DNA of 64,000 nt, from the NCBI RefSeq assembly GCF_003790525.1, contig NZ_CP033636.1; one strand, written 5' to 3'. The notes under the pieces are model-generated. The model searched no databases. It had not been told where the DNA came from and was given only the letters and a program-made list of their open reading frames with translations. The position numbers and the translations under genes were made by a program. This document shows, one piece after another, positions 6,116 to 45,460 of the stretch (positions are counted from its first letter, which is position 1; the number at the start of each line of letters is the position of its first letter). Origin of the DNA: Escherichia coli (GTDB taxonomy: Bacteria > Pseudomonadota > Gammaproteobacteria > Enterobacterales > Enterobacteriaceae).

Positions 6116-6167
6116 TTTTAGCTCCTGCAAACAGTTGAATGAGGGCTGCATTAACAGCCCCGGGTGA

Positions 6168-6178
6168 AAAGTTACTTT
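6168..6178. repeat. AAAGTWACTTT palindrome copy 1 (intergenic terD-terE)
   Basis: Exact match gAAAAGTTACTTTTc read from sequence. Confidence 0.9.
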
Positions 6179-6182
6179 TCGA

Positions 6183-27018: not shown

Positions 27019-27354
27019 CTTGAACGGGTTAAGTCTGGTGAGATTAGAGAGTGCCCCTCCCGGAGGCAAAATTCCCGTTCTTTTATATTTGTACACGCCA
27101 TTTAATTTCATTGTCTGGATTCCAAGATTAATAAGCGTGACAAGTTTAAGGGTATACAGAAGTGTAAATTGTGGAGCAACCTGAATAAAAACCAATAACA
27201 AGCCTGCACACATTACACGTAGCCATGCCGCGTACTCCATGCTCAGCGGACGCTTGAAATAGAATCTTTCGAGCAAATCAACTGTCTTATTACTGATCCA
27301 CGCCGCCGCCACGGAGAGTAACAACACGATGCACACCATAATGCCCAGTTCCAT
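27010..27354 (-). CDS. hypothetical membrane protein
   Basis: Hydrophobic N-terminus (GIMVCIVLLLSVAAAW) and second helix; GAGAAGGGA SD. Confidence 0.4.
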   Translation of the reverse strand: MELGIMVCIVLLLSVAAAWISNKTVDLLERFYFKRPLSMEYAAWLRVMCAGLLLVFIQVAPQFTLLYTLKLVTLINLGIQTMKLNGVYKYKRTGILPPGGALSNLTRLNPFKKK

Positions 27355-28195
27355 TTTCACTCCCTTCTCTTTTAGTCTCTTTAAGTTGAGGCTTAGCCAC
27401 AGTAGTTTTGTTTTTTGCTTTTTTCTTAGGTTTGGTATGATGAAACAGAAAACAATCCACCATTACCCAACCATTTTTATATCGAGCCACCAGCATCTTC
27501 TGGCTGGGGTAATGAGCATGAAACAGCATTTTCACGTCCATGGTGCCCATCAACGACTGTTTGCGCTTTAGCTCATCCTCAGCCATCTGAAATTCTTGTA
27601 AGAATTCTGAAGACAGACGCTGACGCAGGATTCTTATGGCACTGGAGTTTTCATCATTCTTTGCCAGATGCCCGAAGCGTACTAGTGCCTTGTGGGTTAT
27701 CTGGATGGGTCCCAGATGAGAGCTGAGCTGTTCGTACTGCCAGAAGTAGGTCAAATCCACCTTAACCCAGCTGATGCTGTCCAGCAGAGCCTCGTTCATG
27801 ATGGTTCCGGACATTGGTACCATTGTCAGCCTGGCCAGACGCATATGTATGTAGTCCGTAAGCAACCTCAGCGACTCAGGAACGTTTTTATTGAGCAGGA
27901 GATGCTGAAGCACCGGGGTTGCGGTCTGCCAACACAGATTGCGCCCGTCAGGCAGGAAAGCAAACTTTTGATCGTCAGGCGCAGAGTTCGAAGCGTTTTC
28001 CTTACGAAGCAAAAAATAATGGCCGCACAGCAGCTCTGCTCTTACCTGGTCCTCGTCAGGGTCATGTCGGGCTTTACTTAGATCAACGGTAAGCACAACG
28101 CGGTTAATCGCATCAGCGTGATATTTTTTTACCCAGACGCAGACACGATAGAGACGCTCATCGATTTTCTGGCTGGCTGTGGAAATCCATTGCAT
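27290..28195 (-). CDS. hypothetical protein (301 aa)
   Basis: ORF from track; lysine-rich C-terminal tail overlaps the next gene by about 65 nt. Confidence 0.45.
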   Translation of the reverse strand: MQWISTASQKIDERLYRVCVWVKKYHADAINRVVLTVDLSKARHDPDEDQVRAELLCGHYFLLRKENASNSAPDDQKFAFLPDGRNLCWQTATPVLQHLLLNKNVPESLRLLTDYIHMRLARLTMVPMSGTIMNEALLDSISWVKVDLTYFWQYEQLSSHLGPIQITHKALVRFGHLAKNDENSSAIRILRQRLSSEFLQEFQMAEDELKRKQSLMGTMDVKMLFHAHYPSQKMLVARYKNGWVMVDCFLFHHTKPKKKAKNKTTVAKPQLKETKREGSENGTGHYGVHRVVTLRGGGVDQ

Positions 28196-30595: not shown

Positions 30596-31186
30596 TCACT
30601 CCATTTCTGGGATCGAATGAAAATTAACAGCTATAGATGTATCAGGTTTCCCATTTTCTACGATACTCAACCACGTACGCGCTGAGATTTGTTGTTCACA
30701 GACGAGTATGTAACCTGTTCCCTGTTGATGATGTAGCTCAAGAGCTTTTAGGATAGGCCCTGAATGAGGTCCGAGAGCATCACGCGTGTGAATAAGCGTT
30801 TGCTCTGGCAATACGTTGCTAAGCATAGACAGCAGAACATTACGCTCATCCTCATTATCCGACAAAACAAGAATTATACGAAAACCCGTTTTTATACGAA
30901 ATCTGATCTCTGAAACTAACTTTCTTAATCTTAATTTATATATGACCAGGCGGAATCGAGTCATCAGTAAAGAAACCACTGTGAAGATAACGATTACTGC
31001 GCCATATTTTGACCTGTAGAACCACCAGTTAAGGCCTCCAGCAACTATCAGGATTAACATTAAAATTAAACTCCCATAGAAAAAAAGTGCTGGGTAGCGA
31101 GTTGTCTTTCCTTCAATTAGTGCTGAGGCAAATATCAAAATGGATATTCCGTAAATTACCCAGTCAAAAATACTTTCTCCAATCAT
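30596..31186 (-). CDS. hypothetical membrane-anchored protein (196 aa)
   Basis: Three N-terminal hydrophobic helices then a soluble C-terminal domain. Confidence 0.4.
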   Translation of the reverse strand: MIGESIFDWVIYGISILIFASALIEGKTTRYPALFFYGSLILMLILIVAGGLNWWFYRSKYGAVIVIFTVVSLLMTRFRLVIYKLRLRKLVSEIRFRIKTGFRIILVLSDNEDERNVLLSMLSNVLPEQTLIHTRDALGPHSGPILKALELHHQQGTGYILVCEQQISARTWLSIVENGKPDTSIAVNFHSIPEME

Positions 31187-31230
31187 TCTTTAGTGAACAT
31201 CCTTAAAAGTGGAAATGTAGGTTTATGGGT

Positions 31231-31536
31231 TTATGCATTTTCCTGATGGCCTTGACAACCAAGGATTTCACAGAAATTGTCACAGTGTGAAGCTGTAACA
31301 AAGCGCTCTCCACGTTCGAATCGCTCAACCAAATCCTTTCTTACTTCACTTCCAGGTTTCTGGAAGATGTACTCAAGCTGGAGATCCTCGGCCGTAGAAA
31401 GTAGTCGTTCTATGCTGAAATCAACATGGTAAAAGCAAAACTGATTATCAACCGGGGGAAAGTTGCTTTTGGTACTGTTCTCGTTTTTGGATTTTAGTTC
31501 ATTCATGAGCTCTCCTTGGTTGAGAACAGTATACAA
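31231..31536 (-). CDS. hypothetical protein (101 aa)
   Basis: ORF from track. Confidence 0.35.
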   Translation of the reverse strand: MYTVLNQGELMNELKSKNENSTKSNFPPVDNQFCFYHVDFSIERLLSTAEDLQLEYIFQKPGSEVRKDLVERFERGERFVTASHCDNFCEILGCQGHQENA

Positions 31537-31704
31537 ATCTCTTTAGGGATTTTTTTTCGTTAATAGCACTTTTTTGAGTTTAAAGAGTATGTTCATACCA
31601 GAGCATTAGAGGCTACGAAAAGGATAATGGAATTAGAAAGATAGATTTTAAGTGGTGATGTAAGGTGGGATAGGTAGAAGAGGAGTAGACGCTTGTAAGC
31701 GAGG

Positions 31705-31730
31705 CAAAAAAAAGGCACGGAAACCGTGCC
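31705..31730 (-). terminator. Rho-independent terminator ending the paralogue array
   Basis: On the minus strand: GGCACGG-TTT-CCGTGCC followed by T8; about 40 nt past the P5 stop. Confidence 0.65.
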
Positions 31731-31769
31731 ATAAGAGTATGTGAGAAAAAATCAAAATCAGGGAAAGAA

Positions 31770-32726
31770 TCAAGCAGCTTGTGAAACTGAATCTCCAACT
31801 GCAAGATTTAAATTTCTTAGGTTATCGAAAACTTCAGATACTAAGTCATTACGGTCGTGGATTTTAATCCGCCCACCGGTTAACTCTGAAACATAAACGG
31901 TATGGCAGAGGTCAGTAACCACTTCGCCGTATTCATCAACGACTTCCAAAGATGCAATCATCGGAATATAAGAAGCCGCAGCATAGCTCTCATAAATACT
32001 TATTATGGAGTCATTGTTGCGTCGAGAAATTACCCTACCAGAAGGTAAAGCCTCATCTTCCATATAGCAATCAGATAGGTCCTCACAGAAGTCATTTTCT
32101 TTAAGTGAAATATTAAGGGTCAATTCACTGTTGATAGAGCGTGAATAAGAATATTCACTCAGTTTATAGCAAGCCAAACTAATATCACTAAAAGTTTCAT
32201 AAGCTTTATAGAGGCTCGATGTTATAGACTCAGATACAAATGTTATTAGTCCAATAAAATGAGTATCCCAGAACTGTTGCAAAGCAAAACGGGCAATCAT
32301 AACCTGACCATCAACCTGCATCAGTCTGTTATATTCATCCCGGTCATAACCTTTCGACTGAGAAACATCATTAGACATGCTAAGAACTTCACTACAAACA
32401 TCATCATATTCAAAACGACTAGTTGCAAAGTGTTTTCCTGAAATTTCAAGGTACTGACCAGAGACTGCGTCAAACACCTCAAGAAAGTAACAGAGTCGCG
32501 ATTTTAAAGATTCTCTGTTTAAAGCTTCTATTTCATTCTCAGAGATACTATCGACATATAAATCAACAACATTCTTGAGTTCAATAGCTTTGATATTACA
32601 GGTAAAAGAAAGCTCGTCACTTTGACAATGGCAAACACTTAATACTATATCCGCCTCATCAAAATCTATGCCAAGATAACTCAGAACTGCTCGGACATAG
32701 TTTTTATCATCAGATGAATGTGTCAT
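31770..32726 (-). CDS. paralogue-array protein P5 (about 318 aa, unknown function)
   Basis: Clear similarity to P4 (e.g. QVDGQVMIARFALQQFWDTHFIGLITFV versus KVDGKVLVAKFALKQFFHSDFGDFISFV); ATG 32726 preceded by GAGGTAGTGTAT as for P4. Confidence 0.55.
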   Translation of the reverse strand: MTHSSDDKNYVRAVLSYLGIDFDEADIVLSVCHCQSDELSFTCNIKAIELKNVVDLYVDSISENEIEALNRESLKSRLCYFLEVFDAVSGQYLEISGKHFATSRFEYDDVCSEVLSMSNDVSQSKGYDRDEYNRLMQVDGQVMIARFALQQFWDTHFIGLITFVSESITSSLYKAYETFSDISLACYKLSEYSYSRSINSELTLNISLKENDFCEDLSDCYMEDEALPSGRVISRRNNDSIISIYESYAAASYIPMIASLEVVDEYGEVVTDLCHTVYVSELTGGRIKIHDRNDLVSEVFDNLRNLNLAVGDSVSQAA

Positions 32727-32866
32727 ATACACTACCTCGAATTTGAGAGGAAGTGCCCCAGAAGGGAAGCGACTTCCCCACTGGGTTAGATAAAAATTTG
32801 GTTAAGCTAAAAGAAGATGCCAGCGACAGATTTTACATTGTCATAGACAAGTGTCTTCAGCCAACC

Positions 32867-32877
32867 AAAGTTACTTT
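32867..32877. repeat. AAAGTWACTTT palindrome copy 5 (intergenic P4-P5)
   Basis: Exact match ccAAAGTTACTTTTTTgg. Confidence 0.9.
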
Positions 32878-32897
32878 TTTGGACTGAAGCAAAAGGA

Positions 32898-33836
32898 TCA
32901 TTGAGACGCGTTACGAAAATCGTCAAAAGCTTCAGTTATTAGTAATGTGCGATCAGTTACTCTGTATCGGTCATTACTTTCGAGAGATACGTAAGTTGAA
33001 TGCGAAGAATCACAGACAACACGCCCTCTTTTATTGATCAATCTTACTTCCATCATCACCGGCACATTGATAATTGAAGCAACATCGGTATAGAGGGATA
33101 TGAGGGCATCATTGTCACAATATAACGCCCCGTTCCCATCAAATGTATCGTTAAACTTAATATATATATCTGGCATATTTGCCGGATAATCATCAGTATT
33201 GAAATCAATGCATAACTTTAAGTCATCATTAATACGGCGATTAATCTTATGCTGCCCTACACGTACAAAGCCATGTTCAACAGCTTTGATAATCCTTAAA
33301 GTTTCATTAAGACAATCTGTAATTCTTTTCTCGACAAATGAGATAAAGTCACCAAAGTCGGAATGAAAAAACTGTTTAAGTGCAAATTTCGCAACTAACA
33401 CTTTCCCATCCACCTTCATTTTATCGAGATAAAGATTTCTTATAGCATCAGTAGAAGAATTAGCTTTAGATAACTCTTCACAGTCATTAATAATCATTGA
33501 AACAATATCAATAACTTTAACTGGGCTTAAAGTATTACTATATCCGCGAATATCAAACGTAAAAAATCCGAAATTCTTAAATACTCCAAGAAAATAAATT
33601 ATTTTTTGTTTCAAAAGAATAGAATCGGAGTAAGATGCGTTGTGCTTTATTAGCTCAGATATGTAGAGATCCAACATACAATTTAAATTATCGATATCTA
33701 CATCGTAATCAAAGGTTACTTTGTCGAACGAAGTATCAGATAATTGAACGGTTATATCGTCAGCGGAAACATTAAGGCCTAAATTTTGATAAAGAAAGGC
33801 ACTAACAAATTCCACGTGGTCAGATTCTTTAAACAT
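32898..33836 (-). CDS. paralogue-array protein P4 (312 aa, unknown function)
   Basis: Paralogous to P5; GAGG SD. Confidence 0.55.
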   Translation of the reverse strand: MFKESDHVEFVSAFLYQNLGLNVSADDITVQLSDTSFDKVTFDYDVDIDNLNCMLDLYISELIKHNASYSDSILLKQKIIYFLGVFKNFGFFTFDIRGYSNTLSPVKVIDIVSMIINDCEELSKANSSTDAIRNLYLDKMKVDGKVLVAKFALKQFFHSDFGDFISFVEKRITDCLNETLRIIKAVEHGFVRVGQHKINRRINDDLKLCIDFNTDDYPANMPDIYIKFNDTFDGNGALYCDNDALISLYTDVASIINVPVMMEVRLINKRGRVVCDSSHSTYVSLESNDRYRVTDRTLLITEAFDDFRNASQ

Positions 33837-33902
33837 TTACACTACCTCATGACTAAAAAGGAAGTGCTTCCCACCGGGAAGCAGGTTCCCGGATGGGTTA
33901 GA

Positions 33903-34823
33903 TTAATTATAAAAGAGTTCTTCAGAAGGTACATGCATTTCTGGTTTGAACTGTTTTAAGGAGTTGTTTATAGCTTTTCGATATAACCCTGAAGAGTGTG
34001 GCTTAAACATTTGATATTCCGTAACGAGCAGAGGAGACGTAAAGCATCCTAAGTTCACTAGTGAAATACTTGATGTTTCTTCACAAACATCTAATTCAGC
34101 GTATATCCGCCTCTTCATTACCCTGCCTGCTAAATAGCGACGAACATGATTTATAAACTTGTCCGCATCTGATATAGAATTAACTATATAATCAGATGTG
34201 ACTATCTGATTAGATACAGTTTCAGGTATAGCTTCGGCTATTATTTTTACGTTCATTTCATAATCAACACTATGGAAGCAAGCAAGAATTTGTGGCTTCG
34301 CGCTTTCTAAAATCTTTTCAAGAACAGAAAAAATCAGAGAGAACTCGTTTAAAATTCGCTTTTGTATAAGTCCATGTAGATGTTTTATGAAAGGAGAACC
34401 GTGTTCAACAAGGCCTAGTATAAGATCCTTAGAGGCCAAATCTGAGCGGTAATAAACGTATTCTAGATTATCCCGGTTAAATCCTTTGAAAAGCAAATCA
34501 GGCTGCTCTGAGACCAGTCGTAAATGAGTTGAAGCTATAGAAACTTCAAAACGAAAGTTCGCGAGATTTACAGGACCTGCTTTTAATGTAGCCGCTTCGG
34601 AAAAATAAATGAAAAGAGGATGCAAATCATCGTTACCACTGTAAAGATGGTCTGCACCCTTAAGATATTTCACCAAATGAGGTAGAAAAGATATTACTGG
34701 AATATCAGCCACAAATCGAATATGCCGAAATGGTTTTGAATCCAAATATATATTTTCCACTACAGCGCCAACAAAACCCATTTTAACAAGAATAGATTCA
34801 ACTAACTTTTGTATAGCATTCAT
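33903..34823 (-). CDS. paralogue-array protein P3 (306 aa, unknown function)
   Basis: Same size class and array position; AAGAGGG SD; homology to P4/P5 not verified. Confidence 0.5.
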   Translation of the reverse strand: MNAIQKLVESILVKMGFVGAVVENIYLDSKPFRHIRFVADIPVISFLPHLVKYLKGADHLYSGNDDLHPLFIYFSEAATLKAGPVNLANFRFEVSIASTHLRLVSEQPDLLFKGFNRDNLEYVYYRSDLASKDLILGLVEHGSPFIKHLHGLIQKRILNEFSLIFSVLEKILESAKPQILACFHSVDYEMNVKIIAEAIPETVSNQIVTSDYIVNSISDADKFINHVRRYLAGRVMKRRIYAELDVCEETSSISLVNLGCFTSPLLVTEYQMFKPHSSGLYRKAINNSLKQFKPEMHVPSEELFYN

Positions 34824-34843
34824 TTCAATACCCTCTTAATAGA

Positions 34844-34879
34844 GGGATTTCTCCCATAGGGAGAAATCCCTATGGGAGA
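34844..34879 (-). repeat. Two overlapping, mutually exclusive perfect hairpins between P2 and P3
   Basis: GGGATTTCTCCC-ATA-GGGAGAAATCCC (34844-34870) overlaps TCTCCCATAGGGA-GAAA-TCCCTATGGGAGA (34850-34879); followed by CCCTCT-ATTA-AGAGGG which pairs with the SD of P3. Confidence 0.7.
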
Positions 34880-34891
34880 AAATAATTTTAA

Positions 34892-35827
34892 TTAATAATT
34901 ATAGCGAAGCGCATGTTCTTTTTCACTAAGATGGTTTTCATATTCCGACTTACCAGAACTTAAACACTCTTTGAAAAAGACCTTTGAAAAATTCTTCAAG
35001 TCACTTCGGTTATTAATTTCTTTGTCAGACATCAACTTAGCTGAGTGTGAGGTATCAACAGGCCCCAACCACCATTCATATTTAATATAAACACAATTGG
35101 TTTGTGTATGTCCATTTAGAAATCGTTTTGCATTTCTAAGTATTTTTCTACAACCGTTAAGGTCTGAAAGTAAGATATCTGGAGCAATGAGCTCTTCCAG
35201 AATATGACCAGGTAAGCCTTTCCTAAAAAGCTCAACATCGTAACTACAATACCAGTCACGATAATTAAAAGCTTTAATAAGTCTTTCAGGTGTATCCAAA
35301 GATATCTTATTCAGGATTTTTAATGCAAAGCATACAGCATCTTTTAACAACTCGTGCACCTCAACATTGATAAATGAGAAAAACGAGCTTAATTCTTTCT
35401 CTAAGGAATTATACAACTTACCGTAAATATCCTGAGAAAAAAGATACTGCAATCTTTCTTTATTATAAGTGCAATTCGAAATTGAATAGACTTCTCCTCT
35501 TTCGATTTTGCACCCTTCCCTTAAAACTATAGGAAACCTCAAATGGTTAACAAAGAAAGAATGATTCTTTCTTTGCTTCAAAGCATCTAATTGAAATTTC
35601 GTAATTTCCTCCAGATTTGCATCTTCAAAACCTGGAAAGGGAATATCACAGAAACAAGAACTATATGCTTTTGCTGATTCATACATAAACTCCAGTGAAA
35701 CATCAGCATCAAAAGACATACCAGAGAACATGCCCTGCCCATTGTCTAAAAATGTAATGTTTTTAACCTGTATTTTTTTATGTTGAACAACCAAAAAGGC
35801 ATTAATGATTTTTTCGATAATTTTCAT
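34892..35827 (-). CDS. paralogue-array protein P2 (about 311 aa, unknown function)
   Basis: ATG at 35827 preceded by GAGAGAGG; the track ORF starts at an upstream TTG (35842). Confidence 0.5.
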   Translation of the reverse strand: MKIIEKIINAFLVVQHKKIQVKNITFLDNGQGMFSGMSFDADVSLEFMYESAKAYSSCFCDIPFPGFEDANLEEITKFQLDALKQRKNHSFFVNHLRFPIVLREGCKIERGEVYSISNCTYNKERLQYLFSQDIYGKLYNSLEKELSSFFSFINVEVHELLKDAVCFALKILNKISLDTPERLIKAFNYRDWYCSYDVELFRKGLPGHILEELIAPDILLSDLNGCRKILRNAKRFLNGHTQTNCVYIKYEWWLGPVDTSHSAKLMSDKEINNRSDLKNFSKVFFKECLSSGKSEYENHLSEKEHALRYNY

Positions 35828-35843
35828 GTGATCCTCTCTCAAT

Positions 35844-35879
35844 AAAAAAAGGGATCACTCCCATATGGGGTGTGATCCC
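35844..35879 (-). terminator. Terminator-like hairpin with U7 between P1 and P2
   Basis: On the minus strand: GGGATCAC-(13-nt loop containing palindrome CCCATATGGG)-GTGATCCC followed by T7, then the SD and start of P2. Confidence 0.6.
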
Positions 35880-35897
35880 CACATGGGTATAATTTAA

Positions 35898-36776
35898 TTA
35901 AAAATCTGTAAGACCTAAATCTTTATTTCTACCACAAACTGTAGAAGATATAAGACGTTTTACTCGCTTTCGAGCACTTCGGCCTGACGTATCTTTCAAG
36001 TACATCGGTAATGACAATGATGAAATTTGATTACTTCGCTTATGATGGCAGACTATATAGCCCTGCCTCCACCCCGAACGCACAAACTCACGGATGCGGT
36101 TAATATATGCCGAAGCTTGAGATTTTGTACTTATCGATTCAGAACACTTTAAGTTCTGTTCGATAGAGTAAAGCTCAGCCGCCATGAATTTCACCTCATA
36201 CAGCTCATCGCCATAACTTATAGTTTTCAACAGCTCTTCCTTTTCCCGAATGAAAAATACTTGCTGCATTCCAAGGATCAGGTCATAGGCCTCTCGAAAG
36301 AGGTCGATAAGCTTATTACGAACATAAATCATAAACTCCTCAAAGTGCTGAAGCCAGAAATAAGCCGCATTACTTATTTGTGAATTGTGAGAACAAACAA
36401 GCCCTTTAGCAAGCTCGACCTCTTCCTCCCGAAAAGTAAAGTTACTTTTCTTAAACCGACTTTGTTCAAAAATGCTTTGATGCATTTCTATCCATACAGA
36501 AACAAAACCGAGGGATTCAAATTCTTCGTTTAACAAATGTAAACTTTCGAAGATTTTCTGAATTTCGATCCCGATGTCATATGACAGTGGACATTCTTTT
36601 ATAGAATAAACATAACCGGGTAGGAAGTGAGATAAATGCTCAGTTCGCAAATATAAACTGAATTTAAGTTCTGTCAGTGGTTGTTTCAAAGATAACTTAG
36701 ATGATTCGCTTATATTTACTGGTTCAACGCCATTTCTAATCAAAATAGCTTTTACCAGGTCCGTAGCTAACTTCAT
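35898..36776 (-). CDS. paralogue-array protein P1 (292 aa, unknown function)
   Basis: First gene of the array; GGAGG SD. Confidence 0.5.
   Translation of the reverse strand: MKLATDLVKAILIRNGVEPVNISESSKLSLKQPLTELKFSLYLRTEHLSHFLPGYVYSIKECPLSYDIGIEIQKIFESLHLLNEEFESLGFVSVWIEMHQSIFEQSRFKKSNFTFREEEVELAKGLVCSHNSQISNAAYFWLQHFEEFMIYVRNKLIDLFREAYDLILGMQQVFFIREKEELLKTISYGDELYEVKFMAAELYSIEQNLKCSESISTKSQASAYINRIREFVRSGWRQGYIVCHHKRSNQISSLSLPMYLKDTSGRSARKRVKRLISSTVCGRNKDLGLTDF
36438..36448. repeat. AAAGTWACTTT palindrome copy 6 (inside P1 CDS, encodes S-N-F register)
   Basis: Exact match gaaaagtAAAGTTACTTTTc. Confidence 0.9.
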
Positions 36777-36854
36777 ACAGCCTCCATTCGTTATTGAGGC
36801 CTCCCTGATGCAGGTTGGCCATCAGGGAAAATATGTAAATCAATTAGCAATCAA

Positions 36855-37376
36855 TCAGACCGTTGCCATGACATTGTCAATGTATCTGACAAGGGATGGG
36901 CGGTCGTCCTGTAAGGCAAAACGGCGAAGGTCATCAAGATTATACGCAGGAAGATAATCAGCGTAACCTCGAATACGAAGGTCCTCAACCACAACTTTTA
37001 TATACTCAAATCGTCCAAGATTCCCTTTTAATGGGGGTTTTCCTGGACTAGACAGCATATCGTCTGCTTGCTCCCATGTGATTTCTTTAGCTTCACCACT
37101 ATGTAGATCAAGATGGACATATATGAATGACTTATAATCTCCACGGCAACGAAGATAATATTTCGGATAGAAATATTTGTCACAACGCAACAAACACGTT
37201 CCTGAAGGACGAACTACGTACAACAGGTTTCTGTCATTTTCTAATATGCTATGTTTCAAAATCGTTATATCTATCTCATTATCATGCAGCAAATAGCATG
37301 ACGATGGTTCATTGACGATGCGCGATTTTATAACAGCAGCAAATTTATTAAAAACTTCGTTAATTTGAAAATTCAT
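36855..37376 (-). CDS. hypothetical protein (173 aa)
   Basis: ORF from track. Confidence 0.4.
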   Translation of the reverse strand: MNFQINEVFNKFAAVIKSRIVNEPSSCYLLHDNEIDITILKHSILENDRNLLYVVRPSGTCLLRCDKYFYPKYYLRCRGDYKSFIYVHLDLHSGEAKEITWEQADDMLSSPGKPPLKGNLGRFEYIKVVVEDLRIRGYADYLPAYNLDDLRRFALQDDRPSLVRYIDNVMATV

Positions 37377-37569
37377 TAAAATGCTCTCCGATGTAAAACG
37401 ACGAGCATCACCATAACGGTAATACTCCCGTTATGGGTTTTAATAGTTTATGGAATAACCATGTCATACAACCGACCATAGCCAGTAGTACCGCACATTT
37501 ATTTAACTGAGCAAGCATCTCAGCCGTGAAAAGACCTTAAAGGCAGGTAATTATCACGAAGGAAAGCGG

Positions 37570-37613
37570 TTATCTTATCAATACAATTTTAAAATATAAT
37601 ATTGATAAGATAA
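37570..37613. promoter_or_regulatory. 14-bp perfect inverted repeat TTATCTTATCAATA / TATTGATAAGATAA with 16-bp AT-only spacer (candidate operator or origin-like site)
   Basis: Read directly; immediately followed by the CCCCCGC-AAAAA-GCGGGGG hairpin (37614-37636); lies between the primase stop and the next gene. Confidence 0.5.
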
Positions 37614-37646
37614 CCCCCCCCGCAAAAAGCGGGGGAGTTATCGTTG

Positions 37647-38879
37647 TTACAGCTGATTAAGACATTCAGGAGCCCAGTGAATCGGGAATCCATCCTGCCC
37701 TGTTAACTGGAGAACATCGTTCCAGTCGATACCCTTTTTCCCATCAGGAATATCTTGTGCTGGTTCGAAGACTTCAATTGTCAGCTTTGATGCGGGATAT
37801 CGTTTAGCCAAAAACTCAACCATGCGGCTTTGAAGTCGCTGAGCAGCTTCAATACCGGCACGAGTGCCTTGTGAGTTAGCAATATCCTTATCCGCCCAGA
37901 TATAAAAGTTTATAGATTTTACATCCGGCGGAGGCAGTAAAAAATCAGGAACAGTAACGTTTTCAAGGCACCATGCGGAGCTGGCTGCCCAGCATGGTGT
38001 TGAAGTCGCTTCTACAACAGAAAGCGCGTTCTCGATCCCTTCAGCCACTCCCAGTGTCCAGGTCGAACTACCTGAATCATAGTGAGGGTCAAACAACTGA
38101 ATTGAGCCACCTGTCATATCGGCAGGAGGCTTCATCATCAGCTTTGGATTTTCTACAGGTGCCTTATCACCATTTTTGTCTACGTATGTTCTATGAATAG
38201 TCAGAGGCCGACCTCGGGTGTCACGATAGATCGCAATCATTCCCGGATAGATAATCGATTTCTGCTTATCTTTATCCCAATAGTAGATCCGGTTATTAAA
38301 GCCTAAATCCTTTGGTAAGTGACTCAGTAAGCGGGAGATCCCACGATTACGGAGGTACAAAGCAACAGGAGTATTAGGCTTGATTTCACCGGTATAGTGA
38401 TACATCACATCAAGTTTTCGCATTCGCTTTGCCACTTCCTCTCGGTCAAGAGTTTCTGTGGCACGAACTGCTGATTTATAGCGTCGTTCATTTTCAATGT
38501 CGGCGTCAGTTAACGGAGCATGCAGATCCATCCCGAAAAAATCTGAGAGAATCTTTTTGCAAGTCTGCGTTTTACTTAATTCATAATATTTCGCCAGAAC
38601 ATCAATTCCGTCGCAAAACTCATTTACCGGAAAGTCATTATGGATCGCACATCCGGTATAAAGGTCTTTTTGTCGGAAACGAAACTTCGATTTCCCTGCG
38701 CCAGTAAACGGGCAAGGAACCTGGCTCGGGGCTTTTGCACAAGCGTCTTTGAAAGCAGGTATTCTTTCGAATATATACTTCCAGCCAGACACTTCAGCAA
38801 TTCGAGCATGAACGAGTTTAATAAAGTGTTCAGATACTTCCTGTGGATTACGACGAAGAGCCGGGGATGCATAAGTCAT
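37647..38879 (-). CDS. DNA primase-like protein (CHC2 zinc finger plus TOPRIM domain)
   Basis: Zinc-binding motif CPFTGAGKSKFRF...C.H; TOPRIM-like GVAEGIENA and WADKDIANSQG; start taken at ATG 38879, track ORF starts at 38951 and overlaps the upstream terminator. Confidence 0.65.
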   Translation of the reverse strand: MTYASPALRRNPQEVSEHFIKLVHARIAEVSGWKYIFERIPAFKDACAKAPSQVPCPFTGAGKSKFRFRQKDLYTGCAIHNDFPVNEFCDGIDVLAKYYELSKTQTCKKILSDFFGMDLHAPLTDADIENERRYKSAVRATETLDREEVAKRMRKLDVMYHYTGEIKPNTPVALYLRNRGISRLLSHLPKDLGFNNRIYYWDKDKQKSIIYPGMIAIYRDTRGRPLTIHRTYVDKNGDKAPVENPKLMMKPPADMTGGSIQLFDPHYDSGSSTWTLGVAEGIENALSVVEATSTPCWAASSAWCLENVTVPDFLLPPPDVKSINFYIWADKDIANSQGTRAGIEAAQRLQSRMVEFLAKRYPASKLTIEVFEPAQDIPDGKKGIDWNDVLQLTGQDGFPIHWAPECLNQL

Positions 38880-38960
38880 GATGATCTCTCTTATCTGGCA
38901 TTGTGAGTTTCTCAATGCCTTCTGCGGTGCAGAAGACAGGGAGAAACCCACAACGCAGAA

Positions 38961-38987
38961 TTTAAGAAAGAGGGCCCGGGGGCCCTC
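38961..38987 (-). terminator. Terminator-like hairpin after the 73-aa gene
   Basis: GAGGGCCC / GGGCCCTC stem followed on the minus strand by a U-rich tract (TTTCTTAAATT). Confidence 0.5.
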
Positions 38988-38992
38988 AACAT

Positions 38993-39214
38993 TTATGCTT
39001 CAGTCGTGAAGCCATTATTCTCAAGACACTGTATGTAGTTATCTACAAGTAACGCAGCCTGCTGGCTATTACCCTCCGCTATAGTGACTTCGCGGAAGAT
39101 TCTTTCCTGAGGGCTATCATTGCTTATAACTTCACCAACACGTCCGAAAATACGGACTTTATGCATCGCACCGACTTTTTCATGTTCTACACGGTAAGTT
39201 TTTATCTGAGTCAT
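38993..39214 (-). CDS. hypothetical small protein (73 aa)
   Basis: AAGGAG SD; no motif recognised. Confidence 0.4.
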   Translation of the reverse strand: MTQIKTYRVEHEKVGAMHKVRIFGRVGEVISNDSPQERIFREVTIAEGNSQQAALLVDNYIQCLENNGFTTEA

Positions 39215-39242
39215 ATTTTGCTCCTTATTCCTTCATGGAGCA
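39215..39242 (-). other. Hairpin that pairs with the SD of the 73-aa gene
   Basis: TTTGCTCC (39215-39222) pairs with GGAGCAAA (39235-39242); on the mRNA the AAGGAG SD lies inside the stem. Confidence 0.45.
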
Positions 39243-39285
39243 AAAAGACCCACCGGGGCCTTTTGCCCCGATTGGGTAGAGTTTA

Positions 39286-41298
39286 TTAAGAAAGTATTTG
39301 ATGAACTAGCTTACTGACTTCAATAGACAATAAAGAAGTATCATCAACTGTTACGAAAGTGTCCGTTTCAAAACCAATTATTTCATCAGTCTTAATACCA
39401 ACACCAACGATTTCTATTCCATTACATTTAGCCTTTTCCATAACTTCGCCGATAGTAAATTCCGATTTATTCGGATAACCATCAGTTATAAGAAAAATTA
39501 TTTTCCTATCGAATTGGCTGTCAAGTAACAGATCAACAGCTGCCATTAAAGCCGATCCCGTAGGGGTATAATAACCCTTACATCCAAGAGTGAATTTCGA
39601 TAGAGATTCCTCAACGCTTTGATCAAACGTTTTGATAATCTCAAATTCACTTTCCTTGAAGGGAAAGACTATATTGGAGACATGCATTTTTGACAAACTT
39701 TCAGCGGCCATCGATAAAGCAAGATCTGACTTAATGGCATGAATATATCTTTCATCATTAGCCATTGACGCTGAAATATCACGAACTAATACGAGGCCAA
39801 CATGCCCTCTATTTTTAGATTCGCTTTGAGCTCTGAAGACATCACGAACTCCCATTGGTGACAGAATTAATCGATTTCCATCGAAGGTAATTCCACGCTC
39901 ATGAGTTTTGTTTCGGCCACGCATTTTAACCTGCTGTAAAACAGACAAGTCGCTACCGATTGAATGACTCAGAGACAAAGCCTCATTGTAAACATTCAAA
40001 TCGATAAGGAGATCAGGGATATCCCATTCAGAAGCACCGAATTCGGCTTTCACGTCATCGGATACTTTTGATGCAATACCTTCAATCTCTTCAGCCAAAG
40101 CATCGTGATAATCTTCGCTATCCTCATCACTGCCAAGAAAGGCATCCAACAAATCTGCCAGTATCTCCCATTGAGCCGATGAAAAGTTACTTTCATCTTC
40201 AACGTTAGTCGAACTGGCTTCATCTGATTCACTCTCGGAAGGGTTAATCGCATCAGTATCGTCTTCAATAATGTTATCACCTGTGGGATTGCCACCGGTG
40301 GGTTCATTATTTCCCTCGTTATCTTCAGCAAGTTCTGAAGGCTCAGAACATCCCTCTTGAGCAAGATCAGAGTTATCGGAAGTATCTGCCTGACCTTCAC
40401 TATCGTCCTCAGAATCATCCTCACGACTATCAGTCGACTCAAGCGATTTATCTTCTGATTCGGTATCGGTATCGGTATCGGTCTCGGATTCATCATATGC
40501 CTCCTGCTCCTCCTGCTCTGTCTGCTGCTGTTGTTCCCTTGCCTCATCCCGCAGTCTCTCTAAAAGAGCCAGGGTCTTACGAGCAAGGGATTCACAGCCC
40601 TGAGTATTTTCACAACCAAGAGCATCATGAAAAATTTCCTCAACATCAGAAATTACTGGAGAAAGTATCTTTTGGGCATAGTCAAAAAACGGATCGAGTG
40701 TTTCTTTGTGACCTGCCTGCTGAAGGACTTTTACTCGCAATGAGTTAAGCAGATACCACTCAATAAATAGGACAGGATTTTCCGGACGAGAAGATATATC
40801 AGGAGTCATCCTTCCGGCTTTAACCATCAGTGCGTAAGTGGCTGCAAGCCGCCGCTTTGCATCCGGATAATCGTTACCAACCTTCTCTTCCATCTGTACA
40901 TCATCGAACAGATTTATAAGCCCGGTAAGACGTTTTGCCCTGCTATAAGCTTTACGTTTCTCAGCGAGGCTCTCAAACTCTGCATTCATTCCGTCATCGA
41001 AGCGTGTAAACCCTTCAGATGACTTGAGAACACTATTAAAGGCGTCACTGTAAACCTCGCTGTCGGTATAGCGACCATGACCAGCTTCATGACAGGTAAA
41101 ACCTTCAATCAGACTGACAAAGTCATCATCGCTATAATCGCCGTTTGGTAAAACACAAACTTTATTTACAGGATCAAAATACGGTCCTTTGGTATTGTCG
41201 TCTATTACAACTCTTACATCGCCTAAGCCGCTAATGACTTTTGCTATATTCTGTAAACGCTTAATATGGCGCGGTGATGATTTAAGATCTAATTTCAT
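39286..41298 (-). CDS. vWA domain protein with acidic low-complexity region (CobT-like)
   Basis: 670 aa; C-terminal vWA (LVLVRDISASM...FLITDGYPN); central acidic, Asp/Glu/Ser-rich region with TDTDTDTE repeat; AAAGAGG SD. Confidence 0.65.
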   Translation of the reverse strand: MKLDLKSSPRHIKRLQNIAKVISGLGDVRVVIDDNTKGPYFDPVNKVCVLPNGDYSDDDFVSLIEGFTCHEAGHGRYTDSEVYSDAFNSVLKSSEGFTRFDDGMNAEFESLAEKRKAYSRAKRLTGLINLFDDVQMEEKVGNDYPDAKRRLAATYALMVKAGRMTPDISSRPENPVLFIEWYLLNSLRVKVLQQAGHKETLDPFFDYAQKILSPVISDVEEIFHDALGCENTQGCESLARKTLALLERLRDEAREQQQQTEQEEQEAYDESETDTDTDTESEDKSLESTDSREDDSEDDSEGQADTSDNSDLAQEGCSEPSELAEDNEGNNEPTGGNPTGDNIIEDDTDAINPSESESDEASSTNVEDESNFSSAQWEILADLLDAFLGSDEDSEDYHDALAEEIEGIASKVSDDVKAEFGASEWDIPDLLIDLNVYNEALSLSHSIGSDLSVLQQVKMRGRNKTHERGITFDGNRLILSPMGVRDVFRAQSESKNRGHVGLVLVRDISASMANDERYIHAIKSDLALSMAAESLSKMHVSNIVFPFKESEFEIIKTFDQSVEESLSKFTLGCKGYYTPTGSALMAAVDLLLDSQFDRKIIFLITDGYPNKSEFTIGEVMEKAKCNGIEIVGVGIKTDEIIGFETDTFVTVDDTSLLSIEVSKLVHQILS
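40183..40193. repeat. AAAGTWACTTT palindrome copy 7 (inside vWA CDS, S-N-F register)
   Basis: Exact match tgAAAAGTTACTTTcat. Confidence 0.9.
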
Positions 41299-41314
41299 AG
41301 AATACCTCTTTATA

Positions 41315-41362
41315 AAAAAGGGGTACTCACCCAGATGGTGAAGTACCCATCTGGGGTTTTTA
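41315..41362. terminator. Bidirectional terminator-like palindrome between the 379-aa gene and the vWA gene
   Basis: AAAAAA-GGGGTACTCACCCAGATGGTGAAGTACCCATCTGGGG-TTTTT; nested stems CCCAGATGG/CCATCTGGG and GGGTACT/AGTACCC flanked by A6 and T5. Confidence 0.6.
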
Positions 41363-41375
41363 ATAAAGCAAACAG

Positions 41376-42503
41376 TTACCAGCCTTTGAGCTCGATATCA
41401 AAACCATTTTCAACATTGTCTTCCTGTTGCGAAACTGATTTCTCAGGTTCAGCTACAGGATCAGTGTTTGAAAACGTGCTGTTATTTATATCGTTCTCTA
41501 CGACAGGTTCAACCTGGAACACATTTGTTGAATCTAAAATAGCTTCAATACCTGTGTTCTGTAGCGCGTTCGGTTCTGTTTGTGAGCTTTGATTAAATGA
41601 TCTGGTAATAGATTCCAACCAGTCAGTAACCTTTTGCTCTCCTGAAATAATACGCTTTAACATTGAAGCATCACTCATGAAATAAAACCACTGCTGTAAC
41701 ACCGCAACGTCGCGAGGTTCAGAAATGGCACCTTTAGGTAAATTATTCATTATGTGTTTTATAGCTTCTGCAAGTACTGCCGCCTCTTTATGTATAAACA
41801 TGAAGCTAATGATCTTATTTTGCATTTGCTTCAGTCGGTCAATAGTACTTGAGCGCAAATTGTTATTTTTGCTAATTTTTTCATAAACCTTCATTGCTTC
41901 TTCTGCCAGATCTGTTATCAATTGTTCCTGATAGTAGTCCTGGGTTTCATCACCTTCAACGCTAATAGGCGTAAAAGGAATAAAGTGAGCAATATTAAAT
42001 CTAAAGGATTTTATGAAATCATCTTTAGTTAATTTCAACTGATCAATCAAAGAAGACATTCTTGGGCTTCTATTTTTTTCAGCCTCAATATGCATCTCAT
42101 AATTGTCTACAACGTTTTGAATACCTGCCTGAAACTCTCGTTCAATCTCTTGGGCCCCTTCCAGAAACTCTTCCATACTGGATACTGGTAAAATCCACAT
42201 ATTGCTATAGCGGATGCACAAGCGTGAGCAAAGAGTTGATATTCTGCTGGTAATCGTACTTTTGAAGCTAAGGGCTTTTATGTCAATCCAGCGTACTTCG
42301 CTTTTAGATACGCTTTTTTGATCCGTAATATCATCTCCATCATAAGACAAATCGATTTTATCGGTTCGACGCGATCCTTGACAGCCACTTATTTCAATTT
42401 TTGTTATAACTGCACCTTCCAGTAAATCTGGATATGATTTTGCAAAATTCTCAGAGATTTGTTTTGCAGATACTTTGTTAAGCATTGAAGTATTTAAAGT
42501 CAT
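41376..42503 (-). CDS. hypothetical protein (about 375 aa)
   Basis: ATG at 42503 preceded by GGAG; the track ORF starts at TTG 42515; sits between the AAA+ and vWA genes. Confidence 0.45.
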   Translation of the reverse strand: MTLNTSMLNKVSAKQISENFAKSYPDLLEGAVITKIEISGCQGSRRTDKIDLSYDGDDITDQKSVSKSEVRWIDIKALSFKSTITSRISTLCSRLCIRYSNMWILPVSSMEEFLEGAQEIEREFQAGIQNVVDNYEMHIEAEKNRSPRMSSLIDQLKLTKDDFIKSFRFNIAHFIPFTPISVEGDETQDYYQEQLITDLAEEAMKVYEKISKNNNLRSSTIDRLKQMQNKIISFMFIHKEAAVLAEAIKHIMNNLPKGAISEPRDVAVLQQWFYFMSDASMLKRIISGEQKVTDWLESITRSFNQSSQTEPNALQNTGIEAILDSTNVFQVEPVVENDINNSTFSNTDPVAEPEKSVSQQEDNVENGFDIELKGW

Positions 42504-42871
42504 GGGTTTCTCCAAAAAAAAGGGGAAACCCTCCCCAACGGGAAAGATTTCCCGATAGGGTTGATATTAAAGCTTCTCTGGTGAAATTAAAAGAATACCG
42601 GGAAACTCAGCAACAACATCATCATTGCCCATTGCTCCCTGATACATATAACCTTTTAATTCCATTTGTTTAATCAGACCTTCCATATTTATTTTACCAT
42701 CATGATAAAACAATAAAGAATAGTCGTTATTCAGTTGCATAAGTCCAGTAAAATTAGTTCCGTTTTTTGCTATAGCAATGGTAGCAGCACCATCCGTACT
42801 TAAAAACGCACTAAATTCAAGATGGGATAACTCTGAGATACAAATATCAGAGGTTTCATAACAAATCCCAT

Positions 42872-43930
42872 CTAACTCGACTTTTTTGCTGTGAAATACT
42901 CCAGCGATTTATCCTTGTCTTCGCCAAGAGAAAGATCTATAGCTTGAAGAACAAGATCGACCACATGTAAAGGTAAAGCAGAAGCAAAAGCTATTTTGAA
43001 AGTGTCAAGAAGACTAAAGGTTTTTAACGTCATCGACGTGCCAACCCAAGCTACTAATTGACGAATATCCATCACACTGTCTTCTGTACCAGAGTCATTT
43101 ACTGCAATCGCTACTCTTACGAACTTCTCAATGACCTGAAAAGGCAAAGAGCTATATCGTTTAGTAAGCACATTGGTTAAAGCAACTTTGTCGGGCTTCT
43201 CCATTTCAACTATCAAGAACCGCTTTATAAAAGCTGCATCTTGACGTTGAGAAGAAACGAACCGGCGAGCGCCTCCACTCATGTTTGTGTTTGCAGTACC
43301 AATAAATCGCGTGTAGCCATTAGCAGTTATAACCTCACCACCATTAGCACTGAGTGACCAGGGCTTACGTTCAATGGGCATGTGAAGTTTTGCTGCCGTA
43401 TCAGGATCGATTTTGTCCACTTCATCCAGAAGAATGAGGTGACCATTACGAAATCCCGTTACCAAATCGCTGTGTACAAAACCTGTATTACCACCATTAA
43501 GACTGCGCTCACCTTCAAGCTCATCAACTCGAATATTGCTGTTGATCTGCTTAATTGTCAGCGGCCAATTCATCATGTGGCTAATGTACATTACCATTTC
43601 AGTCTTGCCAGAACCGGACTCACCTTTAAGACACACACTTAAATCTATATCCGGACTGATAAGCAGTTTAACCACTTGTTCAAGTATTCGGGGATTTGGT
43701 ATGTAGTCTTTGTTCAGCGGAGCTCGATACGAGGTTTTAGTTTTGAAAACAGGCACAGCCATCTTTGGATCCATTTCTGGAATACCAAAAAGGTCCTTTG
43801 CTAGAACTAAAAGATACTCACCTTTATCCACATAATGTTTTAACTTTATAACATCCGGGGAAAGAAGAGCTTCTAATTTTTCATAAGCATCAGAAGATGT
43901 TTCATTTAACTTCATAGCGGCATTAGACAT
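42872..43930 (-). CDS. AAA+ ATPase (MoxR/CbbQ/CobS-like)
   Basis: Walker A GESGSGKT and Walker B LILLDEVD; 352 aa; paired with the downstream vWA gene as in MoxR-vWA and CobS-CobT systems. Confidence 0.7.
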   Translation of the reverse strand: MSNAAMKLNETSSDAYEKLEALLSPDVIKLKHYVDKGEYLLVLAKDLFGIPEMDPKMAVPVFKTKTSYRAPLNKDYIPNPRILEQVVKLLISPDIDLSVCLKGESGSGKTEMVMYISHMMNWPLTIKQINSNIRVDELEGERSLNGGNTGFVHSDLVTGFRNGHLILLDEVDKIDPDTAAKLHMPIERKPWSLSANGGEVITANGYTRFIGTANTNMSGGARRFVSSQRQDAAFIKRFLIVEMEKPDKVALTNVLTKRYSSLPFQVIEKFVRVAIAVNDSGTEDSVMDIRQLVAWVGTSMTLKTFSLLDTFKIAFASALPLHVVDLVLQAIDLSLGEDKDKSLEYFTAKKSS

Positions 43931-43987
43931 TTTTAACTCCGGTAAAATGCAAACACCGCCCTCTGGCAGATGTTTGCCAGTGGCATT

Positions 43988-44965
43988 TTATTTGAGATTC
44001 ATTTGGCAAATAGTTGCCATCAGTTTCCTGATTTGAGGCACATTATAACCAAGATGATTTCCCACTATTTCAAAAGCTTCAGACATGATCCATTCAAAAT
44101 GATTTTCGAATATTGGATTGATTTCTAACTTGCCAAAAGCGTTTCGTTTAGTTAACAGATCACATGAAACAAGCTCGTCAAACAACTCTAATGTGGATTT
44201 AAAAGCTTTTATGTAAACATCCATAATTTCCCTGTCAGTCCATTTAACAGCCAGTTTTTTTTCTGACATTAAATAATCCTGATCAAAGAAGATGTCCCAG
44301 CCCATATCGTCATTGCAATCATGCAAAATGATTTCATCATCATTCCTGCATTCAGCTAATTTCGTGTTTTCACTAATCGAACGATGCGAATGATAATAGA
44401 GCCATGATTTTAATTCCGCTCTAAATTCACATGCATCAAGTCCATGACATAAACAAGTGTATTCAAATGATTTTGACATATACCACCGTGTTTCAGCTTC
44501 TAAAAGTGGATTCACTGTGATATTACCATTGTCATCTTTGAAGAATAACTTTCTCCTCAACACTAGTTCTTTAATGATTTCCAAAGACTCTTCCATAGCG
44601 GATAGAAAAACAACATACACATCCTCAGGGGTCCATTCTATTACCAGACCACCCAAATCTGGGTTATATTCTTCAACCGTATATAGATAATCTGTTTCTG
44701 CTGCAAAATTAATTGTATGCAAAATCTGATTTTTAAGTAATTTGGATTTTTCATAAAGGTGATTTTCACGCCTTTCAGAATCATAATTTATCTCAGAAAT
44801 GTTACTTTCTTCTGATTTAAAGTTTAATCCGGACGTGTAAGCATCATTTAAATGCTCTTTGGGTGAATCAACTATTTGCGTTATTTCATCTTCATCTATA
44901 TCGAGTATAGAAAAAAAACTAAGTTGATTACTACTTATTGCAGTAGCCCTAAATTTTTGTTTCAT
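43988..44965 (-). CDS. hypothetical protein (325 aa)
   Basis: ORF from track; GGAG SD. Confidence 0.45.
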   Translation of the reverse strand: MKQKFRATAISSNQLSFFSILDIDEDEITQIVDSPKEHLNDAYTSGLNFKSEESNISEINYDSERRENHLYEKSKLLKNQILHTINFAAETDYLYTVEEYNPDLGGLVIEWTPEDVYVVFLSAMEESLEIIKELVLRRKLFFKDDNGNITVNPLLEAETRWYMSKSFEYTCLCHGLDACEFRAELKSWLYYHSHRSISENTKLAECRNDDEIILHDCNDDMGWDIFFDQDYLMSEKKLAVKWTDREIMDVYIKAFKSTLELFDELVSCDLLTKRNAFGKLEINPIFENHFEWIMSEAFEIVGNHLGYNVPQIRKLMATICQMNLK

Positions 44966-44978
44966 GGGGACTCCAAAA

Positions 44979-45005
44979 GGAGAAATCCCATGAAGGGATT
45001 TCTCC
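44979..45005 (-). repeat. Perfect 11-bp-stem hairpin, arm-swapped relative of the hairpin at 34844
   Basis: GGAGAAATCCC-ATGAA-GGGATTTCTCC; same stem sequence as 34844-34870 with the two arms exchanged; followed on the minus strand by UUUU, SD and ATG. Confidence 0.7.
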
Positions 45006-45025
45006 CCTTTAGGGTGGGTTTAATG

Positions 45026-45403: not shown

Positions 45404-45460
45404 TTTCCGCTCCTCGATTTGTTCAAAGAGAAGCCCCGTTAGGGTTCCCCCTTAACAGGA

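Follow-up and report, generated by a model that had tools for sequence, protein, structure and literature searches.

The window analyzed here is a 64,000-nucleotide (nt) stretch of an Escherichia coli plasmid of the IncHI2 type (NCBI RefSeq assembly GCF_003790525.1, contig NZ_CP033636.1), and the subject of this work is an array of five genes that exactly fills its positions 31770-36776. The array consists of five co-directional open reading frames (ORFs) on the minus strand: gene A (35898-36776; 292 amino acids, aa), gene B (34892-35827; 311 aa, with its ATG at 35827), gene C (33903-34823; 306 aa), gene D (32898-33836; 312 aa) and gene E (31770-32726; 318 aa, with its ATG at 32726). The gene starts are those annotated in RefSeq, and each also lies directly past its own Shine-Dalgarno (SD) sequence, which is of the GGAG/GAGG type at all five genes. 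A first-pass annotation, made from the letters of this stretch, had proposed the same five consecutive genes on a mobile element. The ORFs match that proposal exactly, with the lengths refined as above; its alternative 316-aa TTG start of gene B falls within one of the hairpin modules described below. All five ORFs are genuine genes of the expressed type and form part of the IncH backbone.

The mobile element is a conjugative IncHI2 plasmid. When the 6.5-kb stretch around the array was compared, 1114 of 1127 matching IncHI2 plasmid records were at least 99% identical over the array, the carriers of the near-identical stretch belonging to Escherichia, Salmonella, Enterobacter and Klebsiella; 968 of the 1127 records are predicted to be conjugative, and the IncHI2A, MOBH and MPF_F typing refers to those matching records that were opened individually. 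With a GC content of 0.35 the array is the lowest point of the window, which fits DNA that could be silenced by H-NS. No signal peptide and no membrane or hydrophobic segment was found in the five proteins, all of which are predicted to be cytoplasmic. The products of A-C are neutral to basic (isoelectric point, pI, of 8.2 for A), that of D is acidic (net charge -14) and that of E very acidic (pI 4.3, net charge -30).

Genes D and E are homologous in a direct comparison (BLASTP, 27% identity over 309 aa, E 2e-37), the pairwise similarity of B and C is weak, and with three-sequence profiles only the D-E and B-C pairs reach significance. Profiles of 6-9 orthologues per gene, gathered by exhaustive HMMER search, gave 100% for D-E, 99.1% for B-C, 97.4% for A-C and 83% for A-B in hhalign, placing A, B and C in one clade, as the first-pass annotation had supposed with less certainty than for D and E. 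The pooled A/B/C and D/E profiles match each other at 90.8% (E 1.2e-6) over 245 colinear columns; the A/B/C hidden Markov model (HMM) matches D at E 1.3e-8, and the D/E HMM matches A at E 1.6e-4. The AlphaFold models of D (predicted local distance difference test, pLDDT, 91; predicted template modeling score, pTM, 0.84) and C (pLDDT 83, pTM 0.80) have the same element order, H-E-E-H-H-E-H-long helix-E-E-H...E-E-H, and the superfamily-conserved residues L15/L12, Y58/Y53, F164/F145, I246/I224 and L299/L280 occupy equivalent helices in both. Third-party Foldseek matches common to the two models are A0A5B8HP55, A0A6L9JU38 and G5S0L1. Because of the profile-profile match, the reciprocal HMM matches and the matching secondary-structure order in two confident models, the five proteins are assigned to one ~300-aa superfamily of mixed alpha/beta fold with two clades, A/B/C and D/E. 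The earlier proposal of a single family stands in this form, the link between the two clades being probable, not certain. Among all 108 ORFs of the window neither family HMM matched a further member; three ~300-aa hypothetical proteins (45461-46333, 43988-44965 and 27320-28195) were considered and rejected, as the HMMs did not match them.

The positions conserved over 35 paralogues all belong to the hydrophobic or aromatic core, and no conserved polar or catalytic-type residue was found across this set. The proteins are therefore most likely not enzymes and would be binding or scaffold proteins with diverged surfaces.

Database searches offer no assignment by name. The five proteins have zero matches in Pfam and NCBIfam and match no PADLOC family at E <= 1; weak PHROGs matches (E 0.005-0.17) were treated as chance, and profiles of known anti-restriction and anti-defense families (ArdA, ArdB/KlcA, ArdC, PsiB, Acr) do not recognize them. 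Neither family profile finds anything in the PDB at E <= 1, and the modeled fold is without precedent among solved structures. The initial view that nothing identifies the function therefore holds for all these resources, none of which gave a usable match. An exhaustive HMMER search of 1.84 billion representatives returned the IncH family plus three repetitive proteins (P0096, P0124 and P0127), which were rejected as relatives since their multi-stretch matches are compositional. A 'TTC39/IML2' annotation on a Salmonella Cubana plasmid match was likewise dismissed, being merely a truncated copy of gene E at the end of the record. A literature search on R0199-R0203 (array genes and their neighbor in plasmid R27, see below), on DUF3150 and on IncHI plasmids with anti-defense found nothing relevant.

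More distant relatives come from structure comparison. In AFDB50 the Foldseek matches of the D model are headed by its own family, followed by uncharacterized ~300-aa proteins from Brenneria, Dickeya, Photorhabdus, Serratia, Pectobacterium and one Pasteurellaceae species and by several entries named 'NgrC' (E 1e-8 to 1e-4, template modeling score, TM, about 0.6). The matches of the C model include a 'phage protein' and Pasteurellaceae proteins, the latter presumably borne on integrative and conjugative elements. For the NgrC entries themselves the D model gave a Foldseek probability of 1.00, E 1.4e-8 to 1.3e-4 and TM 0.52-0.64; they are absent from the best 50 Foldseek matches of the C model. 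By detectable fold and sequence homology D belongs with an NgrC-like family, the sequence link being weak. The Vibrionaceae MOBH plasmid pAQU1 encodes, two genes upstream of its toprim gene, a 301-aa hypothetical protein that hhalign places colinear with the D/E profile (61%, E 8e-5, over 265 columns) and that the family HMM matches at E 8.5e-6. This protein, WP_014386771.1, may be the 'NgrC' ORF131 of pAQU1. In the paper on that plasmid, which also has a CobS-like ATPase and a VWA gene, 'NgrC' is an annotation only (PMC4036041), and our literature search on NgrC did not find functional data. One table prints 'ngrC' for V. cholerae VC2293, a gene that adjoins nqrB; we discarded it as an apparent misprint of nqrC.

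The array is an old and constant part of IncH plasmids. All five genes are present in IncHI1A (R27-like) and IncHI1B plasmids, with order and sizes unchanged and with products 45-63% identical in amino-acid sequence to those of the window, and 217 of 283 IncHI1 records are at least 99% identical over the array. In distant IncH-like contigs the synteny runs toprim, ~175-aa gene, array, small genes, Tus, integrase and Hha. The copy number, five in IncHI1 and IncHI2, is 2, 4 or 5 in the IncH-like lineages: five-gene arrays are also found in L015 and L016, four-gene arrays in L017 (A, C, D, E), in L007 (B, C and two E-type genes) and in a third contig (one A-like gene and three more), and two-gene arrays in L013/L009 (one A-type, one D/E-type). 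Every lineage has at least one A/B/C-type and at least one D/E-type gene, and the gene order is fixed. A neighbor-joining tree, built for the duplication history from 35 paralogues in 8 lineages, resolves five orthologous clades, which are older than the split of IncHI1 and IncHI2; the array expanded by tandem duplication.

Wherever the comparison was informative, the ratio of nonsynonymous to synonymous substitution rates (dN/dS) was in the range 0.09-0.41 for every gene, which corresponds to purifying selection; the fastest-evolving gene is D. Its allele in the close IncHI2 relative L015 (L015:6001-6939, against 32898-33836 of the window) has 86% protein identity and a dS of 0.30, and the genes flanking it are 97-100% identical with dS 0.005-0.05. 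The high dS confined to D points to allele exchange by recombination, not to accelerated evolution. Of about 1,400 plasmids, more than 98% have the frames uninterrupted. Natural disruptions by insertion sequences (IS) were found in circulating IncHI2 plasmids, with IS903B within C and an IS21-family and an IS3-family element each within D (L020, L021, L022), and E is split by IS2 in R27 (L008), the transfer-proficient IncHI1 prototype. These single-gene insertions in persisting plasmids indicate that no single member is essential.

These data bear on the reading of the first-pass annotation taken in its strong form, namely that the paralogues are independent anti-defense, exclusion or effector proteins, each with its own target system in the host or in a competitor, and have diversified through conflict. 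Several observations favor it: the paralogues have diverged surfaces with D and E acidic, their structural relatives occur on plasmids, in Pasteurellaceae and as one 'phage protein', the D allele was swapped by recombination in L015, the genes are dispensable in nature, and expression is limited to the transfer-derepressed state in the R27 data discussed below. The proposal is nevertheless unlikely in our judgment, as dN/dS is 0.1-0.4, more than 1,300 plasmids have a nearly invariant array, the five orthologues were in place before IncHI1 and IncHI2 separated and have been retained ever since, the proteins match no anti-restriction or anti-CRISPR Pfam family or PADLOC entry, and the spacers have no Frpo-like single-strand promoter or -35/-10 match. 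Rapid diversification of the arms-race type is not supported, given the age of the clades, the purifying selection and the near-identity of the IncHI2 and IncHI1 records. A transfer-related function, which could be one of anti-defense, exclusion or DNA processing, among others, does gain support from the published R27 microarray data.

The opposite extreme, that the genes are decaying relics without present function, would accommodate the tolerated IS insertions and the silence of the orthologues in wild-type R27 under laboratory conditions. We regard it as barely credible and effectively refuted by the selection data, with dN/dS well below 1, uninterrupted frames in more than 98% of the plasmids, confident AlphaFold models and SD-associated modules conserved with compensatory changes.

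The latter modules are the second distinctive feature of the locus. Each of the five spacers preceding the genes is predicted to fold as two adjacent hairpins, HP1 then HP2. HP1 has a GC-rich stem of 9-15 bp of the CCCnnnGGG type; for A, B, C and D it begins 5-26 nt past the stop codon of the gene ahead, and for E about 110 nt into a 171-nt spacer. HP2 holds the next SD, base-paired, in its 3' arm and stops 0-7 nt short of the AUG. On the minus strand the modules occupy 36779-36828 before A (HP1 36802-36828; SD-burying HP2 36779-36801), 35828-35887 before B (HP1 35860-35887; HP2 35828-35858), 34831-34881 before C (HP1 34848-34881, a perfect 15-bp stem; HP2 34831-34846), 33839-33897 before D (HP1 33870-33897; HP2 33839-33867) and 32729-32785 before E (HP1 32757-32785; HP2 32729-32756). 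The first-pass annotation had assigned each gene its own hairpin and SD; both are real, and the hairpin noted is half of a paired structure, the two-hairpin module, found ahead of all five genes and of five more upstream. Its alignment of the regions upstream of D and E is reproduced, the two modules being homologous. The D-E spacer is more than double the length of the others and, in its part upstream of the module (32786-32897), holds an additional long imperfect hairpin; the IncHI1 D-E spacer, of 176 nt, has the same layout.

Folding energies of the five spacers are -23 to -36 kcal/mol, with z-scores of -2.1, -6.9, -5.9, -4.1 and -6.5 against dinucleotide shuffles. Across 8 lineages, 33 of the 35 spacers are predicted to form the same two-hairpin architecture with a buried SD although their sequences differ; in the other two the start codons look mis-called. 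Orthologous spacer sets contain 2-5 compensatory base-pair changes each. By predicted folds and compensatory pairs, the SD is paired in a conserved stem beside the start codon, as in SD-sequestering elements. These statements rest on folds of single sequences and on alignments of orthologous spacers; in a pooled MAFFT alignment of 28 modules RNAalifold recovered 4 pairs, the stems lying in different registers. Rfam has no match for the module, the four sub-threshold hits in 31000-38000 being chance matches.

A window-wide scan places the strong form of the module ahead of ten successive minus-strand genes, within 32729-45459: E, D, C, B and A, followed upstream by the 173-aa gene, a 73-aa gene, the VWA and DUF3150 genes and a 125-aa gene (starts at 37376, 39214, 41298, 42503 and 45403). 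Matches in the rest of the window are weaker, their HP1 reaching -12.1 kcal/mol at best. The presence of the module at five further genes marks it as a signature of the HtdA-controlled cluster, not of the paralogues, and as a regional feature it is unusable as evidence that gene and spacer duplicated as a unit. From its sequence and predicted structure, the dual-hairpin module may gate or couple translation, or may mark sites of RNA processing or stabilization.

Terminator-like sites are in excess, at 11 against 4.1+/-2.1 expected. A U-run directly past HP1 was not found in the four internal spacers, which accordingly lack the form of intrinsic terminators; this form is shown solely by the hairpin past E (31706-31730, minus strand), a canonical GGCACGG-TTT-CCGTGCC followed by T8 that is kept in IncHI1 and sets the 3' boundary of the unit. 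No promoter-like pair of -35/-10 hexamers lies within the five spacers, the nearest, before C, having its -35 in the coding sequence of B, and none of the five has the make-up of an Frpo/ssi-type single-strand promoter.

Some modules also repeat the SD-proximal sequence in the 5' arm or loop of HP1, at p < 0.05 in 14 of 33. In the spacer before B this is a 7-nt copy of the stretch from SD to start, GGATCAC in IncHI2 (in the HP1 arm/loop and again at the SD) and GGATTAC in IncHI1 and L016; among the orthologues L002, L003 and L016 the copy in HP1 co-varies with the anti-SD arm. A run of U5-U7 follows the anti-SD arm before B, where an alternative terminator-like hairpin is possible, and a U-run stands right behind this arm in several modules. 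The sequences hint that the anti-SD arm could pair with either SD copy, giving alternative structures. A universal three-element switch of this kind was rejected, the repeat being significant in 14 of 33 modules only, and is kept as a lead.

Evidence on expression comes from a published microarray study of plasmid R27 (Gibert et al. 2020, PMC7366339), the source of all R27 values below. The R27 genes were mapped by counting back from fixed anchors (R0001/R0002 adjoining trhI, R0003; trhN, R0005; rsp, R0009) and compared with the R27 record, giving R0204 for toprim, R0203 for the ~174-aa gene, R0202-R0199 for A-D and R0198 for the 5' fragment of E; an off-by-one error is possible, and since R0198-R0203 all behave alike the conclusion is independent of it. 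At 25 C the R0198-R0203 probes give 27-129 units in wild-type R27 and 2740-6669 units in the htdA mutant, a 38-115-fold rise; at 37 C the corresponding ranges are 9-61 and 16-64 units (PMC7366339). Tra1 genes rise 5-27-fold in the same mutant (PMC7366339), and the change across the array is among the largest within R0078-R0210 of the table. Being silent when repressed and derepressed without HtdA at 25 C, the orthologues belong, on these values, to the conjugation regulon. In derepressed R27 the R0198-R0203 signals are roughly flat, within 2.4-fold, at about one third of the R0204 level. The drop from R0204 to R0203 fits partial termination past the toprim gene, and the flat signal indicates no efficient termination within the array, which rules out the hairpins as internal terminators.

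Similar mRNA levels of co-transcribed R0198-R0203 in derepressed R27 are also what would be expected of the main rival explanation. Here A/B/C-type and D/E-type subunits would form a hetero-oligomeric complex for processing or priming DNA in conjugation, with the toprim, AAA_5, DUF3150 and VWA proteins as its partners and the SD-burying spacers as a means of balancing the stoichiometry. Both clades are kept in every lineage in a fixed gene order, the toprim/VWA/DUF3150/AAA_5 synteny is present in all IncH-like lineages and partly in pAQU1, and purifying selection with low within-lineage variation is typical of machinery. Set against this are the copy numbers of 2, 4 or 5, with A or B sometimes missing, the IS knock-outs of single genes in circulating plasmids and R27, the absence of any DNA-binding or enzymatic motif found in the proteins, and the relatives elsewhere, which are single genes. 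An obligatory machine is made less likely by the dispensability of the genes, by their variable copy number and by the single genes on other mobile elements, and we consider such a complex a somewhat doubtful, if serious, possibility.

IncHI2 plasmids are known for phage-inhibition phenotypes, and the AT-rich, accessory-looking DNA with tandem genes of unassigned function might suggest a module for defense, addiction or exclusion (abortive infection, inhibition of competing elements) in place of a transfer function. The Phi phenotype maps to the ter region rather than to the array. No PADLOC match and no nuclease, ATPase, toxin or membrane domain was found in the five proteins, and silence except under transfer derepression is a poor design for a standing defense; this explanation is very improbable.

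The reading that we tentatively favor is that the five products are non-enzymatic binding proteins active in transfer or establishment, a function we infer and regard as possible rather than probable. Their synthesis would be confined to a burst of derepression, in donors competent for transfer and probably also in new transconjugants until HtdA has built up, and the SD-burying hairpin ahead of each cistron would keep independent translation low or conditional. Their site of action would be the cytoplasm and their target either the establishment of the plasmid or factors of the host (host interference), with a separate partner for each paralogue and possibly pairs of A-type and D/E-type proteins. 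The single-copy relative near a toprim gene on a second MOBH plasmid, pAQU1, counts in favor. Purifying selection together with a ~100-fold induction seen in R27 only under derepression makes it very likely that the array contributes to transfer or establishment in natural hosts. A more specific form, in which these are conjugation-coupled host-interference proteins of a new fold class, made in a ~100-fold burst without HtdA, with five members to neutralize several host systems across a broad enterobacterial range and with the hairpins as a post-transcriptional gate, we think improbable as it stands.

Several observations weigh against a role of the five proteins as separate binding proteins in transfer or establishment. 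A hetero-oligomeric machine would account equally well for the unchanging gene order and for the presence of both clades in every lineage. Plasmids with IS-disrupted C, D or E persist, so that any role is accessory, and near-invariance within IncHI2 and IncHI1 with purifying selection is atypical of an arms race with host defenses. The window contains no oriT, which on the R27 map presumably lies in Tra1, tens of kb from the array; if this is right, the array is not in a classical leading region. Finally, in the htdA mutant derepression extends to 139 of 181 expressed R27 genes (PMC7366339), by which count co-regulation of the array is not specific.

The array and the 173-aa gene are the distal end of a long minus-strand cluster that starts next to trhI, in Tra2, and runs to the terminator past E. 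The tellurite-resistance (ter) region takes up the left third of the window and the Tra2 transfer region (trhI, trhN, rsp) the right third; the array has a DUF7146/Toprim_3 (primase-like) gene on one side and a Tus-like gene (PF05472) on the other. The 173-aa gene (36855-37376, minus strand), without a family match, is the upstream neighbor of the array in every lineage and shares the upstream dual-hairpin module; between it and the toprim gene lies a terminator-like GC hairpin (37615-37637, minus strand), probably a partial terminator. Further upstream, at 37647-46333 on the minus strand, is a module of AAA_5 ATPase, DUF3150, VWA and DUF7146/Toprim_3 genes that is kept in all IncH-like lineages; its VWA protein is very acidic (net charge -74). 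The same module recurs on pAQU1 (L018 2731-29983), beside bet/exo recombination genes, and corresponds in R27 to the HtdA-repressed cluster R0204-R0002. These nine genes adjoining the array are strongly cold-induced and, according to the authors, of unknown function (PMC7366339).

A separate observation concerns an 11-bp palindrome, AAAGTAACTTT (5-1-5; extended consensus aAAAGTAACTTTt), which has 13 copies in the 64 kb against 0.03 expected, at 6168, 10760, 25229, 28674, 32867, 36438, 40183, 46629, 47308, 53831, 56195, 57378 and 61465 over both strands. The copies lie in coding and intergenic DNA with flanks that are not conserved, and every occurrence of the 9-mer core is part of the full 11-mer. 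Gene A contains one of the two copies in the array; the other follows the D stop codon by 21 nt, in the D-E spacer. The positions are kept in IncHI1A/B and in distant IncH-like loci though the proteins there are only about 50% identical; the palindrome is absent from the 45-kb stretch of pAQU1 examined, and our literature search found no mention of it. From its symmetry and distribution it looks like a candidate dispersed binding site for a dimeric DNA-binding protein, and can be likened to the KorB operators of RK2 or to parS sites.

Intercistronic hairpins are known as SD-sequestering stems that gate or couple translation, as 3' stabilizers of the repetitive extragenic palindrome (REP) type (malE-malF) and as RNase III sites between the early genes of phage T7. 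The IncH modules are like these in placing a stable GC-rich stem between cistrons and a second stem that pairs with the next SD, an arrangement repeated at 10 successive genes. They differ in matching no Rfam family, in having stems of 9-15 bp, shorter than those of typical RNase III substrates, and in not being efficient terminators, as the R27 signal stays level along the array. Among proteins, the NgrC entries (e.g. A0A4R8FL14, A0A095TG29) are of similar size, about 260-300 aa, and have the same predicted fold; unlike the IncH array they are single-copy, and at 10-14% sequence identity they lie beyond the reach of HMMER from the IncH family. As the name NgrC carries no known function, the resemblance explains nothing.

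The closest functional parallel is with the establishment and anti-defense genes of plasmid leading regions (ArdA, PsiB, SSB; Samuel et al. 2024, PMC11541004), which are likewise plasmid-encoded cytoplasmic accessory proteins with transfer-linked expression. Both groups are dispensable for transfer in permissive laboratory matings, and both are often acidic and of unknown fold. The array proteins differ in their size, about 300 aa against mostly small proteins, and in having no homology to known members; their genes have no Frpo-type promoter, being controlled through HtdA/TrhRY and not by single-strand promoters. The array moreover adjoins Tra2, presumably far from oriT. It functionally resembles plasmid establishment genes, yet shares none of the testable features of known anti-defense families and Frpo-driven islands. 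IncHI1 and IncHI2 plasmids are major multidrug-resistance carriers in Salmonella, E. coli and Enterobacter, including mcr and extended-spectrum beta-lactamase (ESBL) genes. About 1,400 sequenced plasmids carry the array intact, as about 5 kb of backbone, and defining its role could reveal a new conjugation step or counter-defense and suggest a target for limiting plasmid spread; the SD-burying module and the AAAGTAACTTT palindrome point to unexplored layers of IncH gene control. Transfer-coupled plasmid accessory genes are already known as a kind, and what is new here is a set of them with an unprecedented predicted fold.

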